Of a DNA stretch of 64,000 nt, positions 3,983 through 34,256 are shown piece by piece. The DNA comes from Clostridia bacterium (GTDB lineage: Bacteria > Bacillota > Clostridia > RGIG6154). A model generated the notes under the pieces. The model made no database searches. It was not told where the DNA came from and was given only the letters and a program-made list of their open reading frames with translations. The position numbers were made by a program, and so were the translations under genes. The stretch is taken from NCBI GenBank assembly GCA_017409875.1, contig JAFQRW010000006.1, positions 49,717 to 113,716 on the forward strand, given 5' to 3'. Every line of letters starts with the position of its first letter. Positions within the stretch are counted from its first letter, which is position 1.

Positions 3983-4010
3983 AAGTTTAAATGAAAAGAG
4001 GTGTCAGGCT

Positions 4011-6468: not shown

Positions 6469-6479
6469 GGGATAATTAA

Positions 6480-11620: not shown

Positions 11621-11626
11621 ATTTAA

Positions 11627-11667: not shown

Positions 11668-11692
11668 GTCGATTTTTTTTAGAAAAAAACAC

Positions 11693-11721
11693 TTGATTTT
11701 GAGAAATATGTGTGATATAAT
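11693..11721 (+). promoter_or_regulatory. sigmaA promoter of the PqqD-SLH locus
   Basis: TTGATT-N17-TATAAT with extended -10 TG and upstream A tract. Confidence 0.75.
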
Positions 11722-11784
11722 TACCGTACATAGGTATAACTATGCACTTTTTTGCTTGCAAAATTATGTTTGGAAGGTGAACTG

Positions 11785-12048
11785 ATGCGTCTTAAAGATG
11801 GGTTTTTATTAAGAAAAGTAGCCGGCGAATATATTGTTGTTCCAACGGGGGACAGTATGGTTGACTTTAAGGCGATGATTTCTCTTAATGAAACCGGTGC
11901 ATTCCTTTGGGAGCAGCTTACTCAGGACAAAACAGAGCAGCAACTTTTACAGTTGCTTTTAAGTGAATATGACGTTGACGAAGAAACAGCAACTTTGGAT
12001 ATTACAGAGTTCTTAAATCTGCTGAAGGACAAGAATTTGTTGGTATGA
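11785..12048 (+). CDS. PqqD family protein / stand-alone RiPP recognition element (RRE)
   Basis: FLLRKVAGEYIVVP...ISLNETGAFLWEQL...LLSEYDVDEETATLDITEFLNLLKDKNLL; 87 aa from ATG after GGAAGGTGA. Confidence 0.92.
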   Translation: MRLKDGFLLRKVAGEYIVVPTGDSMVDFKAMISLNETGAFLWEQLTQDKTEQQLLQLLLSEYDVDEETATLDITEFLNLLKDKNLLV

Positions 12049-12497
12049 GTATAAAAAAAGTTTTAAGCACAAAAGAACTTATGCCTCTTATAAGCGACAT
12101 TTTGAAAACGGCTGAGCGTGTGCGTTTTACCGTCAAGGGAAACAGTATGTATCCCTTGCTCAGAGGCAGTCGTGATGAGGTTGAAGTTGTAAAGTGCGAC
12201 AGTATCGGTAAATATGACATTGTTCTTTACAAAAGAAAAGACGGGTCGTATGTTCTCCACAGAGTATTAAAAAAAGATAACGATACATTGTCAATCGCCG
12301 GTGACTTTGAACAGGAGCTTGAACATCCGGTTTATGAAAGTCAGGTAATTGCAAAGGTTGATAATATAATCAGAGACGGCATGAAAGTTATTTCCTGCAA
12401 AAGCAGTATGTATAAGCTGTATTGCGTTGTATGGTCTGCCGTAATCAAAAACAGACGTAAAATACTTAGAATACTTAGGAAACTGAGGAAATGGTGA
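12045..12497 (+). CDS. S24/S26 family peptidase (soluble, Ser/His type)
   Basis: FTVKGNSMYPLL (catalytic Ser), YDIVLY, YVLHRV (His), AGD; ATGA overlap with PqqD; no N-terminal TM. Confidence 0.85.
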   Translation: MSIKKVLSTKELMPLISDILKTAERVRFTVKGNSMYPLLRGSRDEVEVVKCDSIGKYDIVLYKRKDGSYVLHRVLKKDNDTLSIAGDFEQELEHPVYESQVIAKVDNIIRDGMKVISCKSSMYKLYCVVWSAVIKNRRKILRILRKLRKW

Positions 12498-14164
12498 ATT
12501 TGAAAAATAAAGATATCGCTAAGAAATGGTTTTTTAAGAATGTTAAAAGCTCTTTAAGCGGGGTATTTGTTCTTACTGTCATTTCAATTCTTATTAATGT
12601 ATTTGGCGTCGGCTTTGCAGTTTCTTCCCAGCGCGTTTTGGATGTTGCATCCAAAACTATTGGCGGAAGCTTAATCAAAGAAACAACCATATTGTTTTTA
12701 TTGATTGTTTTGCAACTTGTTTTGCAAATTATCCTCTCAAAATGCTATGTTAATGTGCAGGCAAAGGCGAGAATTAAAATAAAAACGGATTTATTCCACA
12801 GTGTTGTAAACAAAGACCTTACCGAAGTGAATTTTTATCACTCAGGCGAATTGGTCAACAGGCTTTCAAGCGATGTAAATGTTGTATCAAGTGCCGTGGT
12901 AGACATTATACCTACAGCACTTGCACTCGGCATTAGTGTTTGTTTAAGCTTTGCGGTGCTGTTTGCGTTTGATTCTGTATACGCAGTTATTTATCTGATA
13001 GTTGCGCCGCTTGCATTGCTGACTGCAAGGATTTTCAGAAAAAAGCTTAAAGTATTACACAAAGAGTCAGTTCAAACTGATGGTACTGTTAAATCCTTTA
13101 TGCAGGAATGCTTTAGAAATCTTCTGGTCATTAAGGCTTTTGAAAAACAAAAGCATGTGACCGACAAGTGTAATGCTTATCAACTTGCTAACTACAAGGT
13201 TTTGATAAAGAAAAATGATGTTAGTATTTTAGCAAACGTAATGTTCTTTTTGTCCATTACGGCGGGCTATTATCTGACACTTATATGGGGAGCATATAAG
13301 CTCTCTTTGGGACTTTTGACTATTGGTGAGATTGTTGCAATGCTTGAACTTGTTTCTCAGATTCAGTCTCCTTTAAAGTCACTGTCATCACTTTTCCCGC
13401 AATACTATTCGGCAGTTGCATCATCAGAAAGAATTTTGGAACTTGAAAATCTTCCCGATGAGAAGCACACGGAAAATCACAACAAAATAAGCGGTTTTTC
13501 TAAGATAGTTATTGACAATGTTTCATTTACATACGATGAAAAGCCTGTTTTTGACGGTGCTTCGTGTGAGATTGAAAAAGGTGACATCGTTGGAATTTAC
13601 GGCGAGTCGGGAATTGGGAAAAGCACACTCATTAAACTTATTTTAGGGGTGCTTAATGCCCAACAGGGTGAGATTTACATAGTTGACCAGGATGGTCAAA
13701 GAGTTTTGGTTGATACAGAAACCAGAAGCCTGTTTTCTTATGTGCCACAAGGTAACCTGATTTTATCCGGCACAATCGCAGAAAATGTGGCGTTTGGTTC
13801 TGACAACATAGATATAAAGCTGGTTGAACATTGCATCAAAGTGTCGCAGCTTGATGAAATGGTCAGTCAGTTGCCATTAAAGCTTGATACCGGTTTAGGT
13901 GAAGGCGGCCTAGGTCTTTCTGAAGGACAGGTACAGCGATTATCTATCGCAAGGGCATTGTATCGGAATTCTGAAGTCCTGTTGCTTGATGAAGCAACGT
14001 CGGCGCTGGATCGCGAGACCGAAATCAGGGTGTTGGAGGAAATAAAGAGGATGAATAAGACTTGTCTTTTCATAACTCATCGCAAGGAAGCACTTGGAGT
14101 TTGCAGCAAGCTTTTAAGTGTAAAAGGCGGAAAAGTTTCCATCGACAGGCAGGAAATTTTATAA
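12491..14164 (+). CDS. ABC exporter, fused permease/ATPase
   Basis: N-terminal TM domain, GESGIGKS, LSEGQVQR, LLLDEATSALD, ITHR. Confidence 0.92.
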   Translation: MVNLKNKDIAKKWFFKNVKSSLSGVFVLTVISILINVFGVGFAVSSQRVLDVASKTIGGSLIKETTILFLLIVLQLVLQIILSKCYVNVQAKARIKIKTDLFHSVVNKDLTEVNFYHSGELVNRLSSDVNVVSSAVVDIIPTALALGISVCLSFAVLFAFDSVYAVIYLIVAPLALLTARIFRKKLKVLHKESVQTDGTVKSFMQECFRNLLVIKAFEKQKHVTDKCNAYQLANYKVLIKKNDVSILANVMFFLSITAGYYLTLIWGAYKLSLGLLTIGEIVAMLELVSQIQSPLKSLSSLFPQYYSAVASSERILELENLPDEKHTENHNKISGFSKIVIDNVSFTYDEKPVFDGASCEIEKGDIVGIYGESGIGKSTLIKLILGVLNAQQGEIYIVDQDGQRVLVDTETRSLFSYVPQGNLILSGTIAENVAFGSDNIDIKLVEHCIKVSQLDEMVSQLPLKLDTGLGEGGLGLSEGQVQRLSIARALYRNSEVLLLDEATSALDRETEIRVLEEIKRMNKTCLFITHRKEALGVCSKLLSVKGGKVSIDRQEIL

Positions 14165-14186
14165 AGTTTGTTTGGGAGGAATAAAG

Positions 14187-15134
14187 ATGAAATGTAAGAG
14201 AATTATCAAAGTAGTAAGTGCGCTTGCATTAACCTTAGCTTTGTTAGTATCTTCTGGCGTTGTTTCATTTGCTGCATCATACACAACAACGACAAATTAT
14301 CTTAATCAAGGTACTATCGAAGTTACATCTAGAGCTTTCGGTTTAGATGAAGGCGACATGGCTACTTACGTTGCGTATAATGGCAACGGTTTCTCAGAAG
14401 CTAATGCAGTTTACATCGACCAGGCAACAGCAGATGATACCCGCATTGTTACTTTTACATATCAGGCAGATTCTGATGATGTAAAAGCAACAGTTAAGTT
14501 CGGCGGAAAAGGCACAACAGTAACACCTGACAAAGAAGGCTACGAAATTGCGGTAACTGTTAACGGAGAACTTTCTTCAACAGAAGTTGTTCCTACTGTA
14601 GATGCAGCTTACACATTCGAAGGCGACGAGGACTTTCTTGCAAGAGAAATTCCTGTTAGCTTAGTAGCAGGTCAGGCTGTTAATGCTGTTACATTTACAG
14701 CAGAAGGTGCTGCTGACGCTACAACTGTAGATGCTTGGTATGTTAAAGACGGCGCAATCGTTGTTTTAAGCAATGTTATCAGATCAAATGGTACATTAGC
14801 TATTACAACAGAAGAAGCAGAAGTTTCTGTTAGAATCGGCGACGTTGTAGCTGGAACTGGAAAAATCACAGCATTTGCTAAAGCAGTTTGTGCTGACGAT
14901 GCAGATTATGGCATTATCCTTGCAACAGAAGACGCTGACATTTCTACAACAGTTTCATTTGAAGAAGCTGGCGATTACACAACAGCAGTTAAATTACCTG
15001 CATTAGGTAAAGGTGCTGACGGTGGATTCTGTGTAGAAGTTGAAGATGATCAGCTTGTTGCAGGAACAAACTACAAAGTAGCTGCTTATGCAGTAGACAA
15101 AGTTACACCAACTAAGGTTGTAACTGCTCAGTAA
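14187..15134 (+). CDS. secreted acidic beta-rich hypothetical protein
   Basis: Sec signal MKCKRIIK...VVSFA|AS; codon use (GCT/GTT/ACA/TTC/ATC) resembles the ribosomal protein genes; GGAGGA RBS. Confidence 0.75.
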   Translation: MKCKRIIKVVSALALTLALLVSSGVVSFAASYTTTTNYLNQGTIEVTSRAFGLDEGDMATYVAYNGNGFSEANAVYIDQATADDTRIVTFTYQADSDDVKATVKFGGKGTTVTPDKEGYEIAVTVNGELSSTEVVPTVDAAYTFEGDEDFLAREIPVSLVAGQAVNAVTFTAEGAADATTVDAWYVKDGAIVVLSNVIRSNGTLAITTEEAEVSVRIGDVVAGTGKITAFAKAVCADDADYGIILATEDADISTTVSFEEAGDYTTAVKLPALGKGADGGFCVEVEDDQLVAGTNYKVAAYAVDKVTPTKVVTAQ

Positions 15135-15184
15135 TAAAAGCGACTGTATCATTTAACGATACAAATTCAGAAGGAGAATTTATC

Positions 15185-15346
15185 ATGAAAAAATATCAGA
15201 AACCTGTTTTAGAGGTTGTTGAATTAGCAGTTGCTGAAAATATTGCTGCATTAGTGCCGAAAACTATCTATAAAAGATCGGCAGGCTCTGCACTTGCTCA
15301 GAAAGGTTTGGAAACATACAAACTTCAGGGGGAGAGCTTAAGCTAA
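15185..15346 (+). CDS. 53-aa putative RiPP-like precursor peptide (below ORF-track cutoff)
   Basis: AAGGAG RBS; MKKYQKPVLEVVELAVAENIAALVPKTIYKRSAGSALAQKGLETYKLQGESLS; YxxPxL RRE-binding leader motif; inside PqqD/peptidase/ABC/kinase locus. Confidence 0.75.
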   Translation: MKKYQKPVLEVVELAVAENIAALVPKTIYKRSAGSALAQKGLETYKLQGESLS

Positions 15347-15394
15347 TTTTAGCACTGCAAATTAAATAAAAATTTGAGAGGATGTTCACTAAAT

Positions 15395-16270
15395 ATGCAA
15401 TATACTGTCGCAGGTTTTAATATTGATGTTATCAGTGAGCATCCTTCTTACATTTTTATGAGAATGAAGGATTACCAAAGCACTTTTTCGGGGGAAGCTG
15501 ACTTTACAATCAGGTGTAAAGAAGAAAAAAATATTGCTCTCCCCGACGGATTGGTGCATGTTGGTGAAAGAGTCGGAAGATGGCTTTGGTTTAAAAAAAA
15601 TGACGGCACGTTCGGTGCGTACATAAAATATACCGATATCCCAGAGATTGCGGCTTTAGTTGATTGGGATGAAAATTTTAAAAATATCAGTCTTTCGGTT
15701 TATGATGTTGAGCCCTTTGGCGGATTGCCAATAGCTCAAAGAATTTTTTATTTATTGGGCGATGTTTTTACATACTCGGTATTAAGCTTGGGCGCAGGAG
15801 TTTTTCATTCTTCTGCTATAAGCTATAAAGAAAAAGGGATTTTGTTTTCGGCACCGTCGGGAACAGGAAAATCTACCCATACATCGCTTTGGAAAGATGT
15901 ATTTAAAAAAGATGTATCAATCTTTAATGATGATACACCGATACTTAAGATAGAAAATAACGTATGTTTTGCTTACGGATCTCCGTGGAGCGGCAAAACT
16001 GCGATTAATAAAAATATAAAAGTTCCACTTAAGGCTATTGTAAGCCTTGACAGAGCGGAAAAGAATTCGGCAAAAAAACTTACAGGGTTAGATGCTTTTT
16101 ACAGAGTGTTCAACGAATTCAGAAAGCCTCCTGTAGGAACGCTTATGGAAAATTGTTTAACACTTATAGACGGCGTTTTGGAAAGAGTTCCGGTATTTGA
16201 ACTTTTGTGCAATAAAGAAAAAGACGCTGTCACTACAATATACAATGCTGTCGGATTTGACAGAGAATAA
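15395..16270 (+). CDS. HPr-kinase/PEPCK-like P-loop kinase
   Basis: FHSSAI...GILFSAPSGTGKSTH...W...NDDTP...YGSPWSGK; His, Walker A and DD motif of the HPrK-like fold. Confidence 0.8.
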   Translation: MQYTVAGFNIDVISEHPSYIFMRMKDYQSTFSGEADFTIRCKEEKNIALPDGLVHVGERVGRWLWFKKNDGTFGAYIKYTDIPEIAALVDWDENFKNISLSVYDVEPFGGLPIAQRIFYLLGDVFTYSVLSLGAGVFHSSAISYKEKGILFSAPSGTGKSTHTSLWKDVFKKDVSIFNDDTPILKIENNVCFAYGSPWSGKTAINKNIKVPLKAIVSLDRAEKNSAKKLTGLDAFYRVFNEFRKPPVGTLMENCLTLIDGVLERVPVFELLCNKEKDAVTTIYNAVGFDRE

Positions 16271-16288
16271 TTTAAAAGGATGAATACT

Positions 16289-17899
16289 ATGAAGAAAAAA
16301 CTGATTTTTAGCACATTTTTATGTGCAGTGATTTGTGTAAGCTTGATGCTTAGCGTTTTTGCAGTTTCATTTTCAGATTTAACGAGCAGCTACTGGGCTT
16401 ACAGCAACATTATTGAGTTAAGCTCAAAAGGTGTTATCAACGGATATAGCGATGGCACATTCCGTCCGGAAGCTCATGTTACAAGAGCTGAGTTTGTAAA
16501 GCTTATCGGAACAATTAATGTTACAAAAGGCGAGGACTTTGCAGACCTTCCAAAGAGCCACTGGGCATACAGCTACGTTATGAACTCAGGCGTTGATATG
16601 GACAGAAAGAATTTCCGTCCTGATGAAAATATCACCAGAGCAGAAGTTTTAGATATTTTATGGAACAGATACGGTATCAAAACTGATGCAAAGGTTCCTG
16701 GATTGATTGAAAATCAGCATAAAAATGTGGAAGCTGTCGCATGGGCATATTCATACGGACTTATGATTGGCGATGACGGTATAAACTTAAGGCTGGAAGA
16801 TGATTTGTCAAGAGCTGAGGCGGTTACACTAATATTACGCTCAAGAAAAGTTGATACTTCAAAACAAAAATTGCTTGCAGACAACGTAGATAGTATTGTT
16901 TTGGAAAACATTTTTAACAGGGCAATGCTTTTTGATAAAAAGTACAATGAAAATGATACAGTTACAGTTGGGGAGATTTCAAGGGCGGCATTAAGACTTG
17001 CATATCAGACACAGCAAATTCCTTACAATAAAGATTTGTACATAGGAGTTCCTGCTTTTGAAAGTGAATATGCAAACGATATTGCACACATGGCAAAACA
17101 GGTATTTGGTGAAGAAAATAACAATAAAGAATTTGCAGAAAGTAAAGCAAATCAGCAACAAGCTATAGCGGCACTTATGTATGGTTATATGTTTAAAGCA
17201 AACGAGTCACCTGTTATTGGAAGAATGGACGACTATTACAAGGATGCAACAGTTGAAAGAAGCAAAACCATGCTTAATATGCTTCTTACATATACAAACA
17301 GACGTGGCGTGTTTGCAAGTGCAGACGGACTTTTGCACAATGATAAAGCAATTACTCATAAAGAAATTGCATCACTTATTTTGCAGCTCGATAGCTTAAC
17401 AGGCTCACAAATCAGCTATTCAAATGGCAAAGAACAAGACGAAAAATTAAGCACAGATGCTTATCTTTATAAAGAAGCTGATAAAGATTTTGGTATTTTA
17501 TTAAAAGAACTTCCTGCGGTGGTTTATAAAACACCTATTGAAGGCTCTGCTTCAGAATTTACAGTATTTTCAAAAGATTTCTTTGAAATATTTACTACTC
17601 TCGCAGACGGTATTCAGGGAAAAGCAAAATCAAGAGCCACCGAGATTGTACTAAGAGTATATCCTACACTTATTTCAAATGCCGGCGACGAAGTTGTAAT
17701 GAGAACAAAGATTTATGTGGCTTCAAACCCTAAAGGATTAGGACTGGGTGAAATTATCGGTAAGTGTGATATGAACACTGATGTTGCAGCAAAAGAAGGG
17801 ACAACTTATATAATTGACATTTCAACAAACCAGCCACTTAATGATATGTACATAAACCCTGACGACGTGAGTTTAAGAAGACTTATTTGGAATGATTGA
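16289..17899 (+). CDS. S-layer homology (SLH) domain protein
   Basis: signal peptide; FSDLTSSYWA, GVINGYSDGTFRPEAHVTRAEF, FRPDENITRAE, LSRAEA. Confidence 0.88.
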   Translation: MKKKLIFSTFLCAVICVSLMLSVFAVSFSDLTSSYWAYSNIIELSSKGVINGYSDGTFRPEAHVTRAEFVKLIGTINVTKGEDFADLPKSHWAYSYVMNSGVDMDRKNFRPDENITRAEVLDILWNRYGIKTDAKVPGLIENQHKNVEAVAWAYSYGLMIGDDGINLRLEDDLSRAEAVTLILRSRKVDTSKQKLLADNVDSIVLENIFNRAMLFDKKYNENDTVTVGEISRAALRLAYQTQQIPYNKDLYIGVPAFESEYANDIAHMAKQVFGEENNNKEFAESKANQQQAIAALMYGYMFKANESPVIGRMDDYYKDATVERSKTMLNMLLTYTNRRGVFASADGLLHNDKAITHKEIASLILQLDSLTGSQISYSNGKEQDEKLSTDAYLYKEADKDFGILLKELPAVVYKTPIEGSASEFTVFSKDFFEIFTTLADGIQGKAKSRATEIVLRVYPTLISNAGDEVVMRTKIYVASNPKGLGLGEIIGKCDMNTDVAAKEGTTYIIDISTNQPLNDMYINPDDVSLRRLIWND

Positions 17900-17934
17900 T
17901 ATTTACACAATATACGGAAAGGATGAAATTTGAA

Positions 17935-18627
17935 ATGGAAGAAAGAGAAATAGATATTTGGGGTTTAGTTCAGGCAGTTCTTAAGAGATGGTGGCTTGTT
18001 GCTATTATTACTATTTTATCAGGTTCTATTAGTTTTGGGTATTCAAAGTTTGCAATTACACCTCTATATTCTGCAAGAGGCACACTGTATATAACAATTG
18101 ACAACACAGCTTCATCACATGGCGGCACAAGTCTTGATTACAATTCAATCTTGGCTGCTCAGGAGCTGACAAATACATACTCACTGATTCTTTCGAGCAA
18201 TACTTTTTATAAAATTGTTGCTGCAGAAAGCGGACTTAATTACAATTACAAAGAAATTTCAAGAATGGTTTCAATGAGCAATGAAAATGAAAGTGAAATT
18301 ATGAGCATAACTGCAACTTGTCCGAACAGGGAGCATGCGGCAATCATTGTTGAAACAATGTTAAATAACGCTCAGGCGGAAATTTCGAGAGTTGTTATTG
18401 GCGGAAGCGTTAGAATTATTGATCATCCAGAAATGCCTTTGACACGTTCTTATCCTAATGTAACGAAAAATGTATTTTTATGTTTGATATTAGGAGTGGT
18501 TTTGGGATGCGCACTTGCTATTTTAATTGAATGGCTTGACGACACAGTTAAGAATAGCGACGATGTTATGAAGTATGGTATCCCGGTGTTAGCAGAAATC
18601 CCGCTTTTGGAAGCAAAAAGCGAATAA
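17935..18627 (+). CDS. Wzz/CpsC (YveK-like) polysaccharide co-polymerase
   Basis: EREIDIWGL...KRWW, TPLYSA, two TM segments, DDTVKNSDDV..GIPVLAEIP. Confidence 0.88.
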   Translation: MEEREIDIWGLVQAVLKRWWLVAIITILSGSISFGYSKFAITPLYSARGTLYITIDNTASSHGGTSLDYNSILAAQELTNTYSLILSSNTFYKIVAAESGLNYNYKEISRMVSMSNENESEIMSITATCPNREHAAIIVETMLNNAQAEISRVVIGGSVRIIDHPEMPLTRSYPNVTKNVFLCLILGVVLGCALAILIEWLDDTVKNSDDVMKYGIPVLAEIPLLEAKSE

Positions 18628-18666
18628 TTGACATAACAAATAATTCAGAAAGGGTGAGAAAAAGGT

Positions 18667-24600: not shown

Positions 24601-27600
24601 TATACCCGTGAAGTGCGCGAAGTTAAAAATGATGTACAAGAGGGACAGACAGCGACAATTCCTACAAGGAATTTTGATTACTTTAATGAAATTACGCATC
24701 CGCAAACCACCATATCAGGTACAGTTTCTTCAACTGAGGAGCTTGTTCTTAAACGTTACTATCAAAGAATAAGGTTTAGTGTAGACCTTGAGTATAACGG
24801 TGCAACAGGCGGAAACACCACTCTATCACAGGATTATAAATACGAACAGACTGAAAACTTGCCGACACCTACAAAAACAGGTTATGAGTTTGCAGGTTGG
24901 TTTACTGCGCCTGATGATACAGGAGTTTTGATTGCAGACGGCAGTAAAATGCCTCTCGTTGATAGACTTTATGCAAAATGGACACCTGCGTTGGTAAAAA
25001 TTATTGTTGAACATTATAAACAAAAGGTAGAAACTGATGATTTTGATGCACCGATTGTTGATAATCAGCAAAAAGCATACACAGAAAGTACAGTTTCAAA
25101 TAAAATGACAACATATGATGGCTTTAGTGTTGACTTAAATGCAGCAGGAACAGTAAATTCAGCAACAGTTTTACCTGACGGAACTACAGTTCTTAAATAT
25201 TACTACACAAGGAACAAATACAATGTAATTTATGATTATAACAACAATGAACATCCGGGCACGCTTGTTCAAACCCTTAAGTTTGAAGCAAGTGTTGACC
25301 TTTCGGTTGAACCTACATTTACAGTGACCAATAAGTTCTTTGCAGGATGGTATAATGCAGCAACCGGCGGAACTCAGGTAACAAGCCTTACAGTTCCTGT
25401 AGGCGGCGCAACACTTTATGCAAAATGGGAAGACAACCCGGGATATGCTTATGAGTACTGGCTGGAAAACATTGAGGACAACAATTATACACGCGTTGAA
25501 AGAACAGTGTATAATGATAAAACTGTAGGTACATATGTAGGTCCTATTCCAACAAAAACTTATGATGGATTTGTTGAAAACGAGGCTAAGGCGGTACTTT
25601 ACGGTAATGTACTCCAAGATGGATCACTTGCTCTTAAGCGTTTCTATGACAGAAAACGATACACAGTAACATTTGACTACAGAGGAGCAACAGCAGGAAT
25701 TACGTCTAAAGAATATAAATATGGTCAATCTGCTGGTCTTCCGGCACCTTCAAGAGAATTCTATGACTTTAAAGGTTGGTTTACAGAGGTAAATGGTGGA
25801 GGAACAAAGGTTGAAAGCACCGATCTTGCCGGCGTGAAATTTGAATCAGGAACACTTTATGCGTTCTGGGAATTCAACTGGGACGGAGAAGTTAAATTTA
25901 CTGCAAATGTTACAGAGCAAGACTCTGATAATGACGAATTTTCTATAATAGTAGATGTATCAAACAACCCGGTAGGTATTGCAAAATATGACCTTTCACT
26001 TTCTTTTGACAATACAAATGTTGTTGCAATTTTACAAGACGGAAAGGTTGTAACAGACCTTAAAGCTGATGGAGGCTTTGGAGCAGATGTTGCATCCATT
26101 ACATCAAACGCAGATGGAATCACCACAAATGATGACGCAGCACTTTTAAATACAATTACTGTATCATGGGAAAATGCTACAAATAAATCAGGAAATGCAA
26201 ATCTGTTTAAGATAAGATTTAAGATTGTGGGAACAAAGGGAGACGAAGACCATGAAGCTCCGGCACTAATGCGCTTTAGAATGATGAGAGCGATTTCTTT
26301 AATCCCTGGTCTTGAAAGCTTGCCGTTTACATTGGAAGCAACCACAGTTGCAGTTAAATCTGATGAAACAGATAACAACAGCTACATCGAGCTTGAAAAA
26401 GAAACTGAAGGTGACAGCCTTTCACCTTATATGGTTGAGCATTATAAAGAAAATGCCGACAATGATGGTTATACAAAGGTATTCACTCAGTACGGACACG
26501 CAGTTTTAGGCAGTGTAGTTTGGGCTGATCTTAGAAATGCGTACTTAACTGACGGGTTTACACCTGATTATGTAAATTCGATAGACAAAGCAGTGGTGAC
26601 TGAAAGTGGTGCTGTCTTAAAGCTTTACTATTTAAGACCAAGATTTACCGTAACCTTTGATTATCAGAATGCTACAACTGTAGGAATTCCTTCAGTAAGC
26701 CTCAAAGCAGGTGCTTTGGTTTACAACAATCTTCCTTCAGAAAGCACTTTCAGTAAGACCGATTACAACTTCAGCGGTTGGTATACTGAGGCAAATGGTC
26801 AGGGAACAAAGGTTGATGCAAGTTACAAATCTCCTTTTGAAGATGTAACACTTTATGCATACTGGACACAGACACCTTATAAGGTTGAGCATTATCTGGA
26901 AGAATTAGACGGCAACTTTACATTTAAAGAAACAGAAGAAGCTCAGGCAAAAGCCGGAACTTTAGTTACAGCAACCGCTAAGAGCTATCTTGGTTTTGAT
27001 GCACCGGCTGTTATGCCAAGTGCAGTAGTTGCAGAGGACGGCTCAACAGTTATCAAAGTTAACTACACAAGAAAAACCTATACCATTAACTATAACTTTG
27101 GTGACGGATATGCAGACGGAAGTTATGAAATCGAGTTTAAATACGGACAGTCCATTGAACTTGCTAAAGGTAAAAACGATAACGGACTTGTTTTAGGCGG
27201 TTGGTATACTAAAGCAAACGGTCAGGGAATAAAGATAACTACTACTGCAGATATAGATGACATTTTAACAAATCTTGCAGGCGATACAATCACCCTTTAT
27301 GCAAACTGGGTTGAAGAGATTGCTAACTATACCATTGAATTCTATAAGCAGAGCATAGATGTTTCTAACTATTATCCTCAGGTTATGGCAGACACAATAA
27401 CTCTTCAAGGCGTGGTTGGAAGCTTTGTAGAAGTAGATCCAAACGACCCTGCAATTAAAAATAAGTATGTAGGATTTGAACTTAATGAAGCGATAAGTTT
27501 CTTAAAACTAAAACTTGAGGAAACAGGTACACGTTTAAGAGTTTACTATGACAGAAATGAATATACATTAACATTGAACTTCGGTGAAGGTGCAACAGTA

Positions 27601-30600
27601 GATGGTTCAATTAATAAAACACCAAGTGTTAAATATGAAGCAACATATACACTTCCACAGCCAGAGGACGGTTTTTCAAACGGCAACCTGATATTTGTTG
27701 GCTGGTTTGATGCACCTACAGGCGGCAACAAGGTTACAGAAGTAACAATGGGAGCTTCAGATACCGAGGTTTATGCACGCTGGGCAGAGGATGTTGGCGT
27801 TTACACTGTTGAATTCTATCAGCAGAATTTAGACGGCAGTGACTACACAATAGTGGCAACAGACACACAAACAGGACTTGCAGGCACTATTGGCAACACT
27901 GTAAGCGTTGATGCTACAACAGCAGAAATTAAGAATAAATACGAAGGATTTACAATCAACACTTCAATAAGTAAGCTTTCAGAAACTCTTACAAAAACAG
28001 GCACAGTACTTAAAGTTTACTATGACAGAAATGAATATACATTAATTTACAACTACAGTGAAGCTGACAAAACCGGCATTGCAAGTCAGACTTTCAAATA
28101 CGGTCAAACAATTACCTTCCCTGAAGAAAGTACATTTGAAAAGTCAGACTATAAGTTCGTAGGATGGTACACTACAACAAACTTTGCCGATGACGAGCTT
28201 TTGGATACAAGCTTTGCAATTGAAGATGTTGTAGACGTAGCAAATGGTGATACTGAAGCTACAATTTATGTTAAATGGTCTGAAGTATTTACAGTAACAT
28301 TCAGAGAAGGAGCTAAGATTGGAACTTACACAGTTGATCCTGAAGTAAGCAGTACGGTTCCATATTCAGCATTCCCGTATGATAAGCTTAAAGAGCGTTA
28401 TAAGAATGGTTACTTTGAAAATGCAAGCGTTTCATCAGTATATGCAGGAAACGAATATCAGCACACATTTGAAGGTGACTGGTACTACACAGATGAAAAC
28501 GGAAATGACGCATTATTCACAGATGAAACTGTTGTAGACCGTGACATAACAGTTAGATACAAATTCAGATATGTAAGATTGGAACTTTTTGTTGAAAAAT
28601 TAAGTCATAATCTTGTACTTGAAGTACCTTTTGAGGAAAGCACAAGAGTTATTGATTCCATCAAAGACGAATTGTTTGTAAATCAGGAAAAAATTCTTCT
28701 GTTGGCAGACGAAATTGATGCAAGACAAAAATTCCTGGCATTAAATCTTAAGCTTGTTGATTTCTTGGCGGATAAAGGTCTTGAGATTGATCCCGGTCAG
28801 ATTTTTGCTGACGACGGTGAAATCTTAAAGCAGCACATTAAGTTTAATGCATTTGCTTATTTGAACGAAGAAAGTCTTAAAACGGTTGTTGTTAACGCGA
28901 TAAGAACAACATTTAAAAACGATCCTTTAAGAATGCGCGGCGTTATTGACGAAATGATGACCGAACAAGACAAAGACGTTGTTGATCTTATGGATACAGT
29001 GCTGGTGTCTATGCTTTCAGGCGATGATGCTGAAAGGATTAAAGGAATTATTGCAGATGCTGTAGAAACTGCTGTTAAGTATGACGAAAATGATACTGAA
29101 GAGCAAAGAGCTGAAAAAGACGAGTTCAGACAGAGAATTAAAGGTATTATAGTAAGTCGTCTTGATACAGAAGCAGATCCTGAGTTTGAAGGACAAAAAG
29201 TTGTTACGGATAGTGTAAAAGAAGCTGTTTACAGCTATTTCATGGATGAAACCAATGATACAAATATCCGCAAAACTATTATAGACCTTATTAATGATGC
29301 TTACGAAGCAGATGAAGATGGCGAACCTGCAAATCCAGAAATAAGAGCTTTCGTTAAAGGCTATATTACAGACTACTTTAAGTCAGCAACAGGAAGTGCA
29401 GTATTTGACAATTTGATTTTAGAATTGGGCGAAACTCTTGATGCAGATAATCCTGACGATAAGCCTGTTATTGACCTTATTCACGATGTTCTTGCTAAAG
29501 ACGACAGAAATGAAAATGGACTTACTTATCTTGAGGAACTGGTTGACAGAGTAATCAGAGACCTTCATAATCTTGCTGAAGATGAAGAGAATACAGAGCT
29601 TTATGATTTCGTTGTTGATGCAATCACAGAAGAACTTATGAATGATGCCAGCGAACTTGAGACATTGATAAGAACAATTGGTGATGCAGAACCTGCAGAT
29701 TTGAAAGCAGTTTTAGCAACTGCTATGGAAGATGACGGTGTATTTGAAACTGTCGTAAAAACTGCAGTTTCAAATAGCAACGTATTTGCAGATGTTATCA
29801 ATGCATCGGTTTCAGACACAGATGTATTTGAAATTATGGTAAGACAGCTTTGTGAAACAGAAACAGATTTCTACAATATTCTTGTTGACATTGCACTTTC
29901 AAGCACAACTCTTACAAACGAAGTGAAAAATGCTGTTGTTAATAATGATGATGCACTTATCAGTGTACTTAAAGAAGTTTCAACAGATGATGCACTTAAG
30001 GCAGACATAGTTGATGAGATTTTAACTGCTGCAGATGCAGAACTTAAAGGCAAACTTACAAATCCGATTGATTCATCATCAGAATATTATGCTGATGTTA
30101 AAGCTCAGGCACTTATTCAGGCTAAAGCTGAAATTGTAGCTGGCGGAATAACAGAATCAAGTCCGCTTTGGGCTGATGCAGTTGCACAGGCAGAAACAGA
30201 AATCACTAACTTATTGGCAACAGGTATTGCAGAAGGCAGTGAGTATTGGAATGTTGCATACAATACTGCGAAATCAATCTTAAGACAAGAAATTGAAACA
30301 AACTTTGATTCAAAGCTTGATGAAATCAAAACTGATGCTAATCTTAAAGCACAGGTAAGAACCTGGGTACAAGGTGCAATCAACAAGCCGGAAGTAGAAA
30401 GTGCTATTAAAGATTTAACTAATAGCTTGGCAACAAGCACAGATGCTGATGATATTGCGCTTAAGGCATCAATTATTGAAACTGTAATTACAACCGTTAA
30501 AGGTGCAGGTTTTGACACAACAGGATTGGCATCAAGCATTACAACAGAACTTAACAAGGCTGAAAATTCAACTCTTAAAGAAAAAGTTGCAGCAAAAGCT

Positions 30601-32577
30601 ATCGCAGTTCTTAATGATGATGCTTATGCAGACGTCAAGACAGATCTTATAGCTGATGTTTTAGCTGAAGTTTTACCTGATAGTGGTGCGGCTGCAGAGA
30701 ATAAGGCAGACATTGTATCAGAACTTATCGACCAGCTTGTAGGCCAGGTTAATCAAGATGACGGTCAGCCGGGTGGAATTAAAGACACAGTTATTTCGGT
30801 TGCGATTGATGCAGTTGTAAATGACAGCCACGTTAATGAAGAAGCAGTTGCTATTATCAACAAGCTTATTGACGAGTCACCTGAGGAAAATCCGGACGGA
30901 ACTCCTACATTTAAAGAAAAATGTATAACAAACATTATTACATACGTTCTTAATACTCCGACTGTAAAACAAGAGGTAATGCAAAAGGTTGTTTCAATGA
31001 TTGAAACTCCTTATAATCCTGAAATTCCGGGGGCCATTGATTATAAGGCAGAAGCTATTGAATTTGCCTTTAACTATCTTGGAACGCATCCGGTAAAACG
31101 CACAGAAATTGCAGGTAAGCTTCTTGATAGCATTTTAGATGAAGAGCCTGTTGATGGTGTTTATGTACAGCGCGAAAACCTTGCAAATGATGTAAAAACA
31201 GTTATGTTCGAGAGCAGTACAATAATCAGAAACAGAATTCTTGATGTTGGCTTTGAACAGATGTTTGCAGGGGATATAGAAGGATTTGTTTCACTTGCAC
31301 TTGATGAGCTTATCGGAGATGATGCCGTAAGACGTGAGATGATCATTGCGGTAATAAGCACAGAAAACGGCAGAAGAAGCATTTTGGATATCCTCTTTGA
31401 TGAACTTGAAAGAGATCCTACTTTCATTGACGATATGGTTGATATTGCAATGAAAGGCAAGTATGGCGATTTGGTAGCTGATTTTGTACATCAGGTTATC
31501 AATGAAGGAAGGTTTGAAATCAATCCTGATAACGTACAAATAGCTGACGAAATTGTTCTTCCAATGCTTGACAGCCTTACACTTGATACTGTTTTAGAAA
31601 GACTTCCTGAAAGAATTACTGATGTTTTACCAACATCAAAGATTGAAGGAATATTTAACAAATTTAAGACAAAAGCAAGAGAGCTTTTAGTTGAAGCTAT
31701 TAAAGAAGGTAAAGAGGGCAACTCCAAGTATATCAACATAATGATTGATCACGATATTGATGTGATTAATGACATTTTGGTTCCTGCATATAACAAGGTG
31801 TTCCCGAAAGTTGTTGATAAGGCAGAAGACTTCTACTATTACAATGAAAACGTTTACCTTAAAGCAATCGTTGATATGATTGACCCAACCGTCTTGCTCG
31901 ACAATTCTAAGCCGGCTTCAAGTGGCGGCACAGGCTACAGATTAAGAAGCACAGATGAGTATTATGTAATATTTAGAAACGTACTTACTTTGGCTGACGA
32001 TGCTGCAGACTGGTACTTAAATAATATTTCAGATGAGCAGATTAACGGTGCTATCGACAAGGTGGTAGGAAAAGTAAAAACATTGCTTACAAAACTTAAC
32101 AGCTTTGTTGGAAACAGAATTCCGGTATCTAAGATTGATACAGTTGAAAATTATACCAAGAAAATTCTCGATAAGAGAGAAAGAGCATATAATGTTTCAA
32201 CTGCAGGCGCATTTGAACGCTTTGACAATGCTTATGACAAATTTATCGGCTTTGTTAAAGAAAAAACGGGAGTTGACATTTCAAAATCTACAACAATCGA
32301 AGTTACATTCGACGGAAGCAGACTTGCTGTAAACGATAAGGATGTTAACATTGACAACTATGATATAAGCATCAGCGTTAAAGGCTATACCTTCAAACTG
32401 GATTCACACTCAATAACAGTTGCAGGTAAAACCGTTGATATCAGCAGATTTGTTCAAAAAGCAGCTGACATATTCGGAACAAGAAGTGTAACAGTTAAGA
32501 TTGCACAGGAAAATCCATATTCGTACGGCGCTTATGTGGGCAATAACTATATTAAATTGTCTGCTGAGTACAAGTAA
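18667..32577 (+). CDS. giant (4636 aa) SLH-anchored surface protein: 3 SLH, ~18 MucBP-like/InlB B-repeat pairs, cohesin-like domain, long acidic helical C-terminus
   Basis: signal peptide; SLH LTRAEMA/IIREEA/ITREEFA; alternating YxVEHYxQ...GF...LKLYYxRN and YTVTF...F.GWY...LYAxW modules. Confidence 0.88.
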   Translation: MKKCVKSLISMIIALTMLMPTALPVFADNSVPADSLYGFVDFPTGWSKTAMAHAVENGLIYGKTSERIYPHDNLTRAEMATIINRAFGSTVTKDISAFADVSQSQWYYNDIKKAYNMQTLYGDAGGTMRPDAFIIREEAIAIVARAMVLSGYAASNLDKFKDKADISDWAIDPLASMAACGYVNGDEKSNMNPKAFITREEFAQLLHNIIKHYYNEEDGITTFKGNVMVNKPFTSLSNLVINGDLILGDGVGTSTIVLKNVKVTGRILIRGATHISFENSNFEGGVTVKNVNDVVHFDHFSDEVHFNYMKDHTEVTFKKKTTGGGGTPPAPTPTTANYTVEHYQEALDGSFAVFETETLSGTVGLSVTAVAKTYEGFSEDTLNPSRVATGTVATGGTLVLKLYYTRNTYTVTFDFGSGATLTPGTQTSKTDKYGATVVLPTTGFSNGALNFGGWYTQPNGVGEQITQIVIGTSNTTIYAYWTSQNTYKVEHYQENIDGSYSIVDADTQILAADAGTNVTAVAKTYTGFYENTSHAQRVPSGIVLADNSLVLKLYYQRNTYTFTFNAAGGSISGTPKTVYKFGETLVLPTPTKGTDSFGGWWTLPNGTGTKIENTSVLGTDITSAAITVYAHWIPAAPTTGTFTVEHYQEDFYGNWMLYETDLEQTIAIGTVLKAQDYKNEYAGFTVDLANSPNVTVAAGNNTLAIYYTRNEYTVTYNFNDGVPATVHTVTLKYGQQVDLAYLPTVTVPGKFFAGWYNAPAGGTQYPSLWVPAENITIYAQWSDNPGYAIEYWLENADDDEYTCVIREVRNDVTEGQTATIPAEIFEHFTEIVHPQTNTSGVVTATPQLTLKRFYNRARYTITFDYQGADGGVIIPSKEYKHEQTIELPFPTKTGYMLEGWFTGINGTGEKIFDGSQITSGRTLYAYWVPAVVEFKVEHYKQELDGTYSATPSQTEIKEDYTGIEVDAVDHKLDFTGFIFDGSSPSVIVSGDGSTALKIYYIRETYTVSFDTGLGTAVSPVVYKYGQAFTEPGTTRPGYEVEGWYTTSTFDAATKVSAGDLAGTAFTSGTLYANWVALPSDFTVKHHKQNIDDDLYTEAETETKSALTDSTVSADTYKKQYTGFAVDLLSSVDKTVSADGSTVLNIYYLRNKHSITYNYENDVTAPLVVPDVKYDAQVNLAEPDTSLWPAGKYFTGWSLTLGGEAIVAYPMPDEDLNLYAVWGNNPPYQLQYLFENADDADYTVNPAYSTAKNDVVEGQSASIPELSTIPTGFEAYPTHGDTLLSGTVTETPQLVLKRFYKRLRFTVELNYNGADGNNTVLTQEYKYEQTENLPAPTKTGYIFAGWFTALDNTGILIADGSKITSGGTLYAKWTPDVVEFKVEHYKQNIDGTYPDSTTLTDTKNEYTETIVKPEDYDIAIEGFTFDATRNSGIAIAGNGTTVLKVYYTRNEYTVTYNYGEAGGSNTATLKYEANISLAPPTATVAGKYFAGWYDAPTGGLQITSLTMPVGGTTIYAYWSVNPSYTVKHYKQALDGTYPEDGAVIEYIQAGLNETVTATAKTFTGFSEDTSNPSRVPNGTNDGNLTLKLYYTRNQYTLTFEYNGATGNNTTLSQSYRFGETIALPTPTKGEQFAFGGWFTGQNGTGTQITNLSVLGTDVTNSNTTLYAKWIQKYAYTVKYLKQNVDGVSYTEVAADTKTFYGFDNEVVSITNDKTYEGFEYDTGSITSGVVSSVTPLVIELKFVRNSYNVNFDFGGATTSLPSSAPYKYEELVVLPTTGFTNGVKTFVGWFDAQTGGNKVTQITVPLGGTTVYARWADTYFTVKHLIENIDGTDYSQHGASRTEFIAAGEAVKPETYAILIDGFAFDTTRNDEITVSEDNTTVLNVYYTRNEYTVTYNYNESATPTIKTETFKYQQNVDLSAPIITVPNKFFAGWYDAPTGGLQITSLTMPVGGTTIYAQWSDNPGYAIEYWLENADNGDYTREVREVKNDVQEGQTATIPTRNFDYFNEITHPQTTISGTVSSTEELVLKRYYQRIRFSVDLEYNGATGGNTTLSQDYKYEQTENLPTPTKTGYEFAGWFTAPDDTGVLIADGSKMPLVDRLYAKWTPALVKIIVEHYKQKVETDDFDAPIVDNQQKAYTESTVSNKMTTYDGFSVDLNAAGTVNSATVLPDGTTVLKYYYTRNKYNVIYDYNNNEHPGTLVQTLKFEASVDLSVEPTFTVTNKFFAGWYNAATGGTQVTSLTVPVGGATLYAKWEDNPGYAYEYWLENIEDNNYTRVERTVYNDKTVGTYVGPIPTKTYDGFVENEAKAVLYGNVLQDGSLALKRFYDRKRYTVTFDYRGATAGITSKEYKYGQSAGLPAPSREFYDFKGWFTEVNGGGTKVESTDLAGVKFESGTLYAFWEFNWDGEVKFTANVTEQDSDNDEFSIIVDVSNNPVGIAKYDLSLSFDNTNVVAILQDGKVVTDLKADGGFGADVASITSNADGITTNDDAALLNTITVSWENATNKSGNANLFKIRFKIVGTKGDEDHEAPALMRFRMMRAISLIPGLESLPFTLEATTVAVKSDETDNNSYIELEKETEGDSLSPYMVEHYKENADNDGYTKVFTQYGHAVLGSVVWADLRNAYLTDGFTPDYVNSIDKAVVTESGAVLKLYYLRPRFTVTFDYQNATTVGIPSVSLKAGALVYNNLPSESTFSKTDYNFSGWYTEANGQGTKVDASYKSPFEDVTLYAYWTQTPYKVEHYLEELDGNFTFKETEEAQAKAGTLVTATAKSYLGFDAPAVMPSAVVAEDGSTVIKVNYTRKTYTINYNFGDGYADGSYEIEFKYGQSIELAKGKNDNGLVLGGWYTKANGQGIKITTTADIDDILTNLAGDTITLYANWVEEIANYTIEFYKQSIDVSNYYPQVMADTITLQGVVGSFVEVDPNDPAIKNKYVGFELNEAISFLKLKLEETGTRLRVYYDRNEYTLTLNFGEGATVDGSINKTPSVKYEATYTLPQPEDGFSNGNLIFVGWFDAPTGGNKVTEVTMGASDTEVYARWAEDVGVYTVEFYQQNLDGSDYTIVATDTQTGLAGTIGNTVSVDATTAEIKNKYEGFTINTSISKLSETLTKTGTVLKVYYDRNEYTLIYNYSEADKTGIASQTFKYGQTITFPEESTFEKSDYKFVGWYTTTNFADDELLDTSFAIEDVVDVANGDTEATIYVKWSEVFTVTFREGAKIGTYTVDPEVSSTVPYSAFPYDKLKERYKNGYFENASVSSVYAGNEYQHTFEGDWYYTDENGNDALFTDETVVDRDITVRYKFRYVRLELFVEKLSHNLVLEVPFEESTRVIDSIKDELFVNQEKILLLADEIDARQKFLALNLKLVDFLADKGLEIDPGQIFADDGEILKQHIKFNAFAYLNEESLKTVVVNAIRTTFKNDPLRMRGVIDEMMTEQDKDVVDLMDTVLVSMLSGDDAERIKGIIADAVETAVKYDENDTEEQRAEKDEFRQRIKGIIVSRLDTEADPEFEGQKVVTDSVKEAVYSYFMDETNDTNIRKTIIDLINDAYEADEDGEPANPEIRAFVKGYITDYFKSATGSAVFDNLILELGETLDADNPDDKPVIDLIHDVLAKDDRNENGLTYLEELVDRVIRDLHNLAEDEENTELYDFVVDAITEELMNDASELETLIRTIGDAEPADLKAVLATAMEDDGVFETVVKTAVSNSNVFADVINASVSDTDVFEIMVRQLCETETDFYNILVDIALSSTTLTNEVKNAVVNNDDALISVLKEVSTDDALKADIVDEILTAADAELKGKLTNPIDSSSEYYADVKAQALIQAKAEIVAGGITESSPLWADAVAQAETEITNLLATGIAEGSEYWNVAYNTAKSILRQEIETNFDSKLDEIKTDANLKAQVRTWVQGAINKPEVESAIKDLTNSLATSTDADDIALKASIIETVITTVKGAGFDTTGLASSITTELNKAENSTLKEKVAAKAIAVLNDDAYADVKTDLIADVLAEVLPDSGAAAENKADIVSELIDQLVGQVNQDDGQPGGIKDTVISVAIDAVVNDSHVNEEAVAIINKLIDESPEENPDGTPTFKEKCITNIITYVLNTPTVKQEVMQKVVSMIETPYNPEIPGAIDYKAEAIEFAFNYLGTHPVKRTEIAGKLLDSILDEEPVDGVYVQRENLANDVKTVMFESSTIIRNRILDVGFEQMFAGDIEGFVSLALDELIGDDAVRREMIIAVISTENGRRSILDILFDELERDPTFIDDMVDIAMKGKYGDLVADFVHQVINEGRFEINPDNVQIADEIVLPMLDSLTLDTVLERLPERITDVLPTSKIEGIFNKFKTKARELLVEAIKEGKEGNSKYINIMIDHDIDVINDILVPAYNKVFPKVVDKAEDFYYYNENVYLKAIVDMIDPTVLLDNSKPASSGGTGYRLRSTDEYYVIFRNVLTLADDAADWYLNNISDEQINGAIDKVVGKVKTLLTKLNSFVGNRIPVSKIDTVENYTKKILDKRERAYNVSTAGAFERFDNAYDKFIGFVKEKTGVDISKSTTIEVTFDGSRLAVNDKDVNIDNYDISISVKGYTFKLDSHSITVAGKTVDISRFVQKAADIFGTRSVTVKIAQENPYSYGAYVGNNYIKLSAEYK
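22996..24557 (+). repeat. exact internal nucleotide repeats in giant gene
   Basis: 84 bp identical at 23128-23211 and 24454-24537; 42 bp at 22996-23037 and 24316-24357; 33 bp at 20991-21023 and 24525-24557. Confidence 0.85.
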
Positions 32578-32586
32578 TAATTTATC

Positions 32587-32617
32587 AGCGGGTAAACTTA
32601 GAGTAAGTTTACCCGCT
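32587..32617 (+). other. intergenic 14-bp-stem hairpin without poly-U tail
   Basis: AGCGGGTAAACTTA-gag-TAAGTTTACCCGCT. Confidence 0.75.
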
Positions 32618-32643
32618 TGATTAAAAAAGAAAGGATGATACAT

Positions 32644-34218
32644 TTGAAAAAAGCATTATGTCTTGTTTTAACACTTATTTTATGCTTGTCTTCTGTGGCT
32701 GCGTTTGCGGATGTAGAAGGAAGTGTGCAAGGTGATATAATGCTCACTTCAACTGAGGGACAAGCTGTTTCTTCTGAAAAAGCAAATACAATTACATTCA
32801 GCGATATTGTAGCTGATTCTCAGCTTGGTGAAGCAGTGTACAAGCTTGTTGAAGCTAAAGTTATTGCAGGCTATCCTGATGGCACATTCAGACCGAATGC
32901 AGGACTTACAAGAGCTGAACTTTGCAAAATGATTAATCTTGTGTTTGATTTAAATGAAAAATCTGAAAATATGTCTTTTACAGATGTAACAAAAGATGAC
33001 TGGTATTATGATTATGTTTTGGTAGCAGTTAAAGCAGGTTACATCAAGGGCTTCCAGGATAACACTTTCAGAGGCGATGACCCTGTTACAAGAGAGCAGG
33101 CATGTGCTATCATCAACAGAGTAACAAAAGCAAAAGAAATAGACCTTTTCGACCTTCCGTTTACTGATAATATCACCGACGAAGTGTCTGACTGGGCATT
33201 AGAAGACGTTAAAAAGATAATTGCAAATTACATTATGCCTTTAGAAGCAGGCGGAAAATTCCGTGCGACAGAAAATATTACAAGAGCAGAGCTTGCACTT
33301 GCTTTAGAAAGCTTTGTTGTGATACTTCCTGAATATACTGTAACATTTAATTCAAACGGTGGCAGCGAAGTTGAAAGCCTTATCGTTAAAGAGGGCAAAA
33401 AAGCTACAAAGCCTGCCGATCCTACAAAAAAGGACTATAAATTTAAAGGTTGGTACACTGATAGCAAGCTTAAAACAGCTTATGATTTTGAAAGCATCAT
33501 TACAGCCGATATCACACTTTATGCTGCATGGACTGCAACTGCTACAGGTGGCGGAGGCGGTGGAGTTTATATTCCTCCGTCAACAGAAGACCCGGAACCT
33601 GCAACATATACAGTAACATTTAAATTCAACAATGGTGATGCTGATGCAACACAGACCGTTACACAGGGAAGCTTGCTTACAAAACCTGCAGACCCTACAA
33701 AGCAGTTTTATGTATTTGAAGATTGGTACACAGATTCAGGCTTAACCAATGCTTATGACTTTACCATTCCCGTAACAGACAAATTAACTCTTTATGCAGG
33801 ATGGGGACAAACACCGGAACTTAAAAATGAGCAAAGAATCTTTGATCTTGGTATATTTAAAACAGCATTGGAAACACAGTTGGCAGACGGATTATTTGCA
33901 CAAGACGAAAGTGATGCGTATGAAAGAATGGTAAACAACATACTTTCTACATTTGAAAGCGCTATATCAGCAGGACAGTCAGGTGCAACTATTGATGAAG
34001 ACTACATCAGAACGAATTATCAAAGCAATATGCTTCAGATTCAGGACATCTGGGAAAATGAGTTGTTTGTTGATACATTTGTTGATGAGAAGCGAGAGTT
34101 TAAAAATAATATTTTAGTAGTTTTAACAGTTGCACAGAGTAATGGTTATACAATGACAGTTGGTCAGACATATAATCTTTTTCAAGCTGTAATCGGCGAT
34201 TTTATAGATTGGGAATAA
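32644..34218 (+). CDS. SLH domain protein with two InlB B-repeats
   Basis: signal peptide; GYPDGTFRPNAGLTRAEL, FRGDDPVTREQ, ITRAEL; YTVTFNSNGG...FKGWY...TLYAAW x2; GGGGG linker. Confidence 0.88.
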   Translation: MKKALCLVLTLILCLSSVAAFADVEGSVQGDIMLTSTEGQAVSSEKANTITFSDIVADSQLGEAVYKLVEAKVIAGYPDGTFRPNAGLTRAELCKMINLVFDLNEKSENMSFTDVTKDDWYYDYVLVAVKAGYIKGFQDNTFRGDDPVTREQACAIINRVTKAKEIDLFDLPFTDNITDEVSDWALEDVKKIIANYIMPLEAGGKFRATENITRAELALALESFVVILPEYTVTFNSNGGSEVESLIVKEGKKATKPADPTKKDYKFKGWYTDSKLKTAYDFESIITADITLYAAWTATATGGGGGGVYIPPSTEDPEPATYTVTFKFNNGDADATQTVTQGSLLTKPADPTKQFYVFEDWYTDSGLTNAYDFTIPVTDKLTLYAGWGQTPELKNEQRIFDLGIFKTALETQLADGLFAQDESDAYERMVNNILSTFESAISAGQSGATIDEDYIRTNYQSNMLQIQDIWENELFVDTFVDEKREFKNNILVVLTVAQSNGYTMTVGQTYNLFQAVIGDFIDWE

Positions 34219-34223
34219 AAAAT

Positions 34224-34256
34224 AAAAGGTGAAAGCGAAAAGCTTTCACCTTTTTT
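34224..34256 (+). terminator. intrinsic terminator ending the surface locus
   Basis: AAAAGGTGAAAGC-gaaa-GCTTTCACCTTTTTT. Confidence 0.88.

Follow-up and report, generated by a model that had tools for sequence, protein, structure and literature searches.

What is made by a run of genes in which the apparent machinery for modifying and exporting a 53-residue peptide is followed directly by genes for S-layer-type and polysaccharide proteins? The run occupies positions 11693-34256, on the + strand, of a 64,000-nucleotide stretch of DNA (the window) from an uncultured Clostridia bacterium (GenBank assembly GCA_017409875.1, contig JAFQRW010000006.1), whose genome measures 1.46 Mb and is 98% complete. 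An earlier note on this DNA had listed its genes, all of which are confirmed as open reading frames (ORFs) of that strand, and had proposed a new system producing an exported linear phosphopeptide. As a prediction, an exported, linear and probably phosphorylated peptide is supported by the gene set, modelled folds, catalytic residues, homology to lpp genes and lack of a cyclase. The novelty does not hold: the make-up for which the earlier note knew of no characterised pathway is published as the linear polyphosphorylated peptide (LPP) family (PMC13381572). Judged by sequence comparison, structure models and homology, we probably have here a clostridial representative of the LPP-type pathways for ribosomally synthesized, post-translationally modified peptides (RiPPs). 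More tentatively, with a confidence that falls a little short of even, we read the peptide of this lineage as working at the cell surface, in company with a secreted protein, an SLH protein and a Wzz protein, and not as an antibiotic.

The LPP family of Bacilli has been described and partly reconstituted (Popov et al., Nat Commun, May 2026; PMC13381572). As reported there, clusters of Paenibacillus alginolyticus and other Bacilli are ordered lppA-K-B-S-D-N and encode a precursor of 35-200 aa (LppA), an HprK-like kinase (LppK), a RiPP recognition element (RRE; LppB), a leader peptidase resembling SipW-type signal peptidases (LppS), an MsbA-like pump (LppD) and an NTP transferase (LppN), which the authors suspect of needing a partner from outside the core cluster. 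LppK adds up to four phosphates at Ser3 of the core; LppS cleaves after Thr-1, LppB being required, and its Ser29, His68 and Asp93 are essential by mutation. The clusters co-localise with capsular polysaccharide loci, and their patchy distribution in Bacilli is read by the authors as conflict-like. The role of the peptides is not known, and the authors merely speculate on biofilm. The main text of the paper does not mention Clostridia; its supplementary data may list some. Besides this paper, our literature search found none on such peptidases in RiPPs or tying such a cassette to SLH proteins.

With the published system the window has in common a Tyr-x-x-Pro leader, a discrete RRE, a kinase resembling HprK, an MsbA-like exporter, a leader peptidase of the archaeal signal-peptidase-like type with Ser, His and an acidic residue, no cyclase, and surface-polysaccharide genes as neighbours. 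The order differs, being B-S-D-(secreted protein)-A-K here against the published A-K-B-S-D-N. For a kinship test 35 Paenibacillaceae loci were fetched, 26 of which have an LppA-type precursor; BLASTP figures refer to seven canonical-type loci, and an eighth locus compared (L092), of clostridial type, was left out. Against these the window peptidase shows 22-27% identity (E 1e-11 to 2e-6), the kinase 23-30% (E 7e-10 to 2e-4) and the RRE 26-31% (E 4e-6 to 1e-3). A profile of the clostridial peptidase also matches an ORF of ~155 aa in 66 of 136 Paenibacillaceae genomes.

The predicted leader peptidase (LppS-like; 12045-12497, 150 aa), like the kinase, had no match in our local copy of Pfam, and both proteins were confirmed by folding and alignment instead. 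Its NCBIfam match to sigpep_I_arch (8e-7) lies below the cut-off. The structure model (pLDDT 91.8) retrieved in Foldseek top rows that all belong to clan SF, SEC11C first and then lambda repressor, SpsB, LexA and UmuD, and its sequence profile found five signal peptidases in PDB with weak E-values. Among 37 sequences Gly32, Ser34, Met35, Pro37, His72, Arg73, Gly86, Asp87 and Glu93 are invariant. Ser34, His72 and Glu93 align with Ser29, His68 and Asp93 of one LppS-like ORF, so the third putative catalytic residue is Glu in the window and Asp in LppS. Fold and Ser-His catalytic boxes are those of SipW/SEC11 signal peptidases of the archaeal/ER type. Unlike these, the window protein lacks an N-terminal membrane anchor; it begins with a helix and has basic helices at its C-terminus. 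It is coupled to an RRE, is predicted to be cytoplasmic, and would act on a leader rather than on a Sec signal peptide. Peptidase, RRE and precursor were also modelled together; a control in which the peptidase had been swapped out came too near in score, and we count the result neither for nor against binding.

The RRE (LppB-like; ORF opening at TTG 11752, likely start ATG 11785, end 12048, 87 aa) matches Pfam PqqD at E 6.7e-19. Its stop overlaps the peptidase start in an ATGA, an overlap that the earlier note had reported and that the sequence contains. The exporter (LppD-like; 12491-14164) matches ABC_membrane and ABC_tran in Pfam, has no peptidase domain, and resembles MsbA (NCBIfam 1e-69, below cut-off).

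The predicted precursor (LppA-like; 15185-15346) has a GGAG ribosome-binding site, and its 53 residues fall within the LPP size range. It carries a conserved N-terminal motif, Tyr4-x-x-Pro7-x-Leu9, a variable C-terminal part and a terminal Ser53. The small ORF is conserved: there are 41 database relatives, nearly invariant over residues 1-31 and variable over 32-52, and the terminal Ser is present in 41/41. Placed in register with LppA (Tyr-16 to Thr-1), the peptide would be cut after Asn19, the Glu at Tyr+14 becoming Glu-2; by hand count this Glu recurs in 19 of 30 candidate precursors from the wider set, and an acidic residue in 25. Thr27, constant in the window's clade, is an alternative cut site. 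Nothing in the window precursor corresponds to the published Ser+3.

The kinase (LppK-like; 15395-16270, 15395 being the likely true start, 291 aa) belongs to a family with 1342 relatives at E <= 0.001, in which the P-loop and Asp-Asp motifs are invariant. Its profile gave only P-loop-level matches among PDB sequences, and the fold assignment came from the structure search: the model (pLDDT 93.8) retrieved PEP carboxykinases and HPr kinase/phosphorylases at E ~1e-5. The family carries the precomputed Pfam label PF27840.

We infer the phosphorylation site, the cleavage site and the role of the window peptide; RRE dependence, leader cleavage and phosphorylation as such are carried over from the Bacilli system by homology. 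Synteny, kinship with canonical lpp loci, gene content, folds, catalytic residues and the lack of a cyclase are what the present analysis itself shows. On this footing the PqqD-like RRE would bind the 53-aa precursor through the Tyr-x-x-Pro motif of its leader. The kinase of HPr-kinase fold would phosphorylate the precursor, most plausibly at the invariant Ser53 and possibly several times. With the RRE presenting it, the leader would be removed by the cytoplasmic protease (Ser34/His72/Glu93), which is translationally coupled and predicted to cut after Asn19 or alternatively after Thr27, and the ABC exporter would secrete the product, which is expected to stay linear because there is no cyclase.

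Phosphorylated lasso peptide clusters, such as those of paeninodin and of pseudomycoidin (which has both kinase and NTP transferase), resemble the window in combining an RRE and the same leader motif with an HPrK-like kinase and an ABC exporter (PMC8498205). For paeninodin the precursor's C-terminal Ser is reported to be the kinase's target (PMC8498205), and the window peptide likewise ends in an invariant Ser. The window differs from lasso clusters in having a serine peptidase in place of the cysteine peptidase, and in that neither the Asn-synthetase-like cyclase nor the transglutaminase-like B2 protease was found genome-wide. The absence of both, which the earlier note had seen in the locus, thus extends to the 98%-complete genome: the whole-genome search for B2 gave 0 matches, and that for Asn_synthase gave two short ones only (contigs C21 and C3), the former a tRNA-thiolase-like PP-loop protein. 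After either candidate cut, the precursor sequence has no Asp or Glu at core positions 7-9, where a lasso ring acid would lie.

Could the locus be a lasso cluster that decayed and ceased to function after losing its cyclase? The leader motif, RRE and kinase common to paeninodin-type clusters (PMC8498205) would fit. So would a possible lasso cyclase upstream of the cassette at L052:3041-5026, an ORF of 661 aa in which a PP-loop motif occurs; it is the sole case that a crude, motif-only screen found in 81 sources (80 loci from species genomes and the window). The frames are all intact, however, with catalytic residues invariant; hundreds of relatives exist; a dedicated non-lasso peptidase stands in place of B2; and the published LPP system works without a cyclase (PMC13381572). 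We regard decay as highly improbable, the least credible of the alternatives considered here.

The earlier note had also reported no radical SAM enzyme and no nucleotidyltransferase. This is true of the operon and not of the genome, which holds both kinds elsewhere. Apart from the cassette, at C10:158010-159158 (L121:3014-4159, minus strand), an orphan NTP_transf_5 gene of the LppN/PsmN family (Pfam 1.6e-45) stands in a glycan locus, where it has as neighbours a fucose-pyrophosphorylase/GHMP-kinase protein of 965 aa, LicD, a flippase and a gene that its first residues mark as serine recombinase-like. NTP_transf_5 is present in 12 of the 76 related loci of the kinase-tree set. Contig C21 (76382-77758 and 92059-93013) carries a SCIFF-type radical SAM maturase with an N-terminal RRE-like stretch and a separate, stand-alone PqqD-like gene; the latter adjoins an oligopeptide transporter and a metal-hydrolase-like gene with a His-Glu-x-x-His motif.

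How widely is the pathway spread, and in what company? The kinase profile matched 150 of 399 genomes drawn evenly from the class and 77 of 216 genera; all 15 own-family genomes have it, as do all sampled members of several other families. Inheritance of the kinase looks vertical because of the 15/15 own-family and 150/399 class genomes, unlike that of a patchy antibiotic cluster; it also differs from the patchy distribution that the paper gives for Bacilli (PMC13381572). Locus counts are floors, as contig ends cut many loci. Of the 81 sources, 78 carry the kinase, 44 the peptidase, 41 the RRE and 32 the ABC exporter; neighbouring families were Wzz and NTP_transf_5 (13 each), the SLH539 protein described below (10), VanZ (9), CpsD-like (8), CpsB (7) and radical SAM (5). 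Exopolysaccharide (EPS) genes lie within 9 kb in 18/76 loci, with at least 12 state changes on the kinase tree. Such cassettes, which the earlier note placed near surface/EPS genes in gut anaerobes, recur widely.

Within the window's own family (n=15 loci) the company is closer: Wzz stands beside the kinase block in 14, SLH539 in 13, the precursor in 13, the RRE in 12, the secreted protein in 11, the peptidase in 10 and the ABC exporter in 8. Three of these loci (L126, L131, L132) have a contiguous RRE-peptidase-secreted protein-precursor-kinase-SLH539-Wzz block minus the ABC exporter. In two loci from another genus (L136, L137) we saw a reduced RRE-precursor-kinase-Wzz form, with peptidase, exporter, secreted protein and SLH539 undetected; the gene immediately upstream of the RRE in L136 encodes a serine recombinase.

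The surface genes begin with SLH539 (16280-17899), an SLH-domain protein (Pfam SLH) whose C-terminal part has no assignment, an ESM Atlas look-up having given nothing usable. It is followed by a chain-length determinant of Wzz/CpsC type (17896-18627; Pfam Wzz and GNVR), the sole Pfam Wzz match in the 1.46-Mb genome. The order kinase-SLH539-Wzz is kept across six genera at 30-40% protein identity, with junctions that overlap or measure 9 nt, and SLH539 lies immediately 3' of the kinase in 10/81 sources. The link of the cassette to surface/EPS genes is supported as non-random, and in the own family it has the 14/15 and 13/15 counts given above for Wzz and SLH539. We dropped one further count as evidence, the presence of SLH genes within 9 kb in 15/76 loci, because the SLH density of the window's own genome predicts a similar rate.

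The main rival to a surface role is that the peptide is secreted for antimicrobial competition, its proximity to Wzz and SLH genes reflecting only a shared envelope gene island. Between invariant head and terminal Ser lie 21 residues that change rapidly among the 41 relatives, as in conflict-driven peptides; the patchy LPPs of Bacilli are seen as conflict-like by Popov et al. (PMC13381572); and SLH adjacency overall does not exceed chance expectation. Against competition stand the lack of an evident immunity gene, the kinase in 15/15 own-family genomes and throughout the sampled members of several families, and the kinase-SLH539-Wzz order, kept with tight junctions in six genera at such low identity. 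On balance we think competition unlikely.

The Wzz protein raises a second alternative. Its NCBIfam match (polys_exp_MPA1, 4e-30) is below cut-off, and it is CpsC-like, recalling the CpsC/CpsD/CpsB capsule regulators of Firmicutes. Other loci run from the cassette straight into CpsD and CpsB, whereas the window Wzz has neither beside it (they are on another contig) and comes after a gene of Ser-kinase fold and an SLH protein. The exported phosphopeptide might then be a quorum or envelope-state signal that regulates EPS or S-layer production through a Wzz/CpsC-CpsD tyrosine-kinase circuit, without a structural part. The CpsC-like character of the window Wzz speaks for this, as do the CpsD and CpsB genes that come after Wzz in some relatives and the genome's own CpsD/CpsB pair, which lies on contig C16 with no Pfam Wzz alongside. 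The operon has no sensor kinase or regulator, however, and a fast-varying core would force a dedicated receptor to track its changes; we rank a signal as less probable again than competition. The C16 pair, a CpsD-like protein and CpsB, belongs to a capsule-type set (C16:128042-132982, locus L122) that also has a CapD-like protein, an NTP transferase and a membrane protein of 247 aa assigned to no family.

Is the 53-aa ORF the substrate at all? Between exporter and precursor lies the gene for the 320-aa secreted protein Sec320 (14172-15134, likely start 14187), of no known family: there was no Pfam or NCBIfam match and an ESM Atlas look-up was uninformative. Its family is present in 8/81 sources, and within the window's clade the gene always has this position. 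That constancy, and published LPP precursors reaching 200 aa (PMC13381572), would suit a main substrate among the larger neighbours, either Sec320 or an SLH protein. These large proteins, however, have no Tyr-x-x-Pro head and start with the usual signal sequences of Sec type, whereas the 53-aa ORF has the motif, a ribosome-binding site and conservation. A larger substrate therefore seems very unlikely to us.

The run continues beyond Wzz with a giant surface protein of 4636 aa (18667-32577), placed in the same operon by spacing, that has 3 SLH and 16 Flg_new (Listeria-Bacteroides repeat) stretches, and ends with a 533-aa SLH and Flg_new protein (32617-34218; Pfam). The earlier note had treated the whole 22.5-kb span as one system. 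The block up to Wzz bears this out, being conserved family-wide; the giant protein does not, since a homologue of its N-terminal part follows Wzz (53-70% identity) only in L123-L125, own-family loci from three genomes of the same genus. An open giant frame also occurs in locus L006.

The signals that bracket the run are as the earlier note described them. A sigma-70-like promoter match with an extended -10 (11693-11721, + strand, 10/12 positions) is the top site within 11500-19000 and sits behind a terminator-like + strand hairpin (11627-11657, 13-pair stem with a T run) at the end of the upstream M23/LysM/G5 peptidase gene. Taken together, promoter-like sites do not exceed chance, with 24 found against 21.1 expected in shuffles. 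The run is closed by an intrinsic terminator hairpin on the + strand (34224-34254, T run after the stem), beyond which there is a fresh promoter match and SecD begins, at 34353. RNA contigs, from two libraries of one study, lie over 12957-15329 and 18675-19427 only; they span the secreted protein and the precursor along with the ABC gene's 3' end, and bridge both junctions between these genes. As evidence of expression this is weak, and DNA carry-over is possible.

A number of observations count against the pathway assignment or the surface role as proposed. Identities to canonical LppK, LppB and LppS are just 22-31%, and for that reason we take the window for a distant rather than a close LPP member; the RRE matches lasso B1 proteins better than LppB among PDB sequences (TbiB1 7e-5, PbaB1 0.002, LppB 0.02). 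Pfam and NCBIfam scans found no LppN in the window run. Set against the published peptide (PMC13381572), the window leader has neither the His-Gln nor the Phe-Glu-Thr part of the consensus, and Ser+3 is missing from the core, the Glu at Tyr+14 alone being kept; a pattern search of the window and the 80 clostridial-type loci did not find the full LppA consensus, its lone match, inside an ABC gene, being spurious. Only 6 of the 30 wider candidate precursors end in Ser (hand count), so a terminal-Ser site cannot be general. Five of the 15 own-family genomes have no ABC gene in an otherwise contiguous block, and the peptidase went undetected in five of 15, some of them cut by contig ends. The window's own genome encodes ~20 SLH proteins in 1.46 Mb, and SLH genes are generally not enriched near the cassette. 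Finally, the RNA contigs do not cover the kinase, SLH539 or Wzz, and are silent on co-transcription.

What is new here is the clostridial form of the pathway. Its gene order is different, LppN is missing at the locus, one catalytic residue is altered, and the likely phosphosite is another one, the invariant C-terminal Ser; as conserved companions it has three surface genes inherited with it, those for the secreted protein, the SLH protein and Wzz. In its most specific version the surface role would make the LPP-type phosphopeptide a built-in part of envelope assembly, its terminal Ser-phosphate anchoring or priming a glycan or secondary cell-wall polymer together with the secreted protein, the SLH protein and the sole Wzz. 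This is a long shot, in our estimate, and if true it would show for the first time what LPPs, and the phosphate or phospho-sugar marks of related lasso peptides, do biologically. Here the pathway would share one operon with Wzz-type and SLH proteins, in a linkage kept across a whole family of gut Clostridia, and such co-inheritance hints at the purpose of these peptides. A vague co-localisation with capsule genes becomes a testable hypothesis, namely that the peptides take part in surface assembly. With the kinase family in more than one third of sampled Clostridia species, the LPP family would extend well past Bacilli.

Some features of the surroundings and of related loci can be added. Upstream of the operon, cell-wall and division genes fill 226-7253 (two Mur ligases, MraY, FtsW, a MurA-like gene and FtsQ), and the M23/LysM/G5 peptidase gene immediately precedes the operon. 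A 151-aa and 557-aa pair at 41473-43601, sized like the peptidase-exporter pair, was considered as a second cassette and rejected: the two are ArgR and RecN, and the likeness is a coincidence. A VanZ-family gene lies near the cassette at 9023-9535 (minus strand), as one does in several arrangements among the 9/81 sources counted above. In five loci (L021, L025, L037, L052, L055) the kinase/peptidase/RRE/ABC set is accompanied by a radical SAM enzyme (Pfam) and one to three precursors with Cys-rich cores, an apparent hybrid between the LPP machinery and a thioether-type RiPP; three of the five have CpsB and/or a sugar transferase 3' of the cassette.

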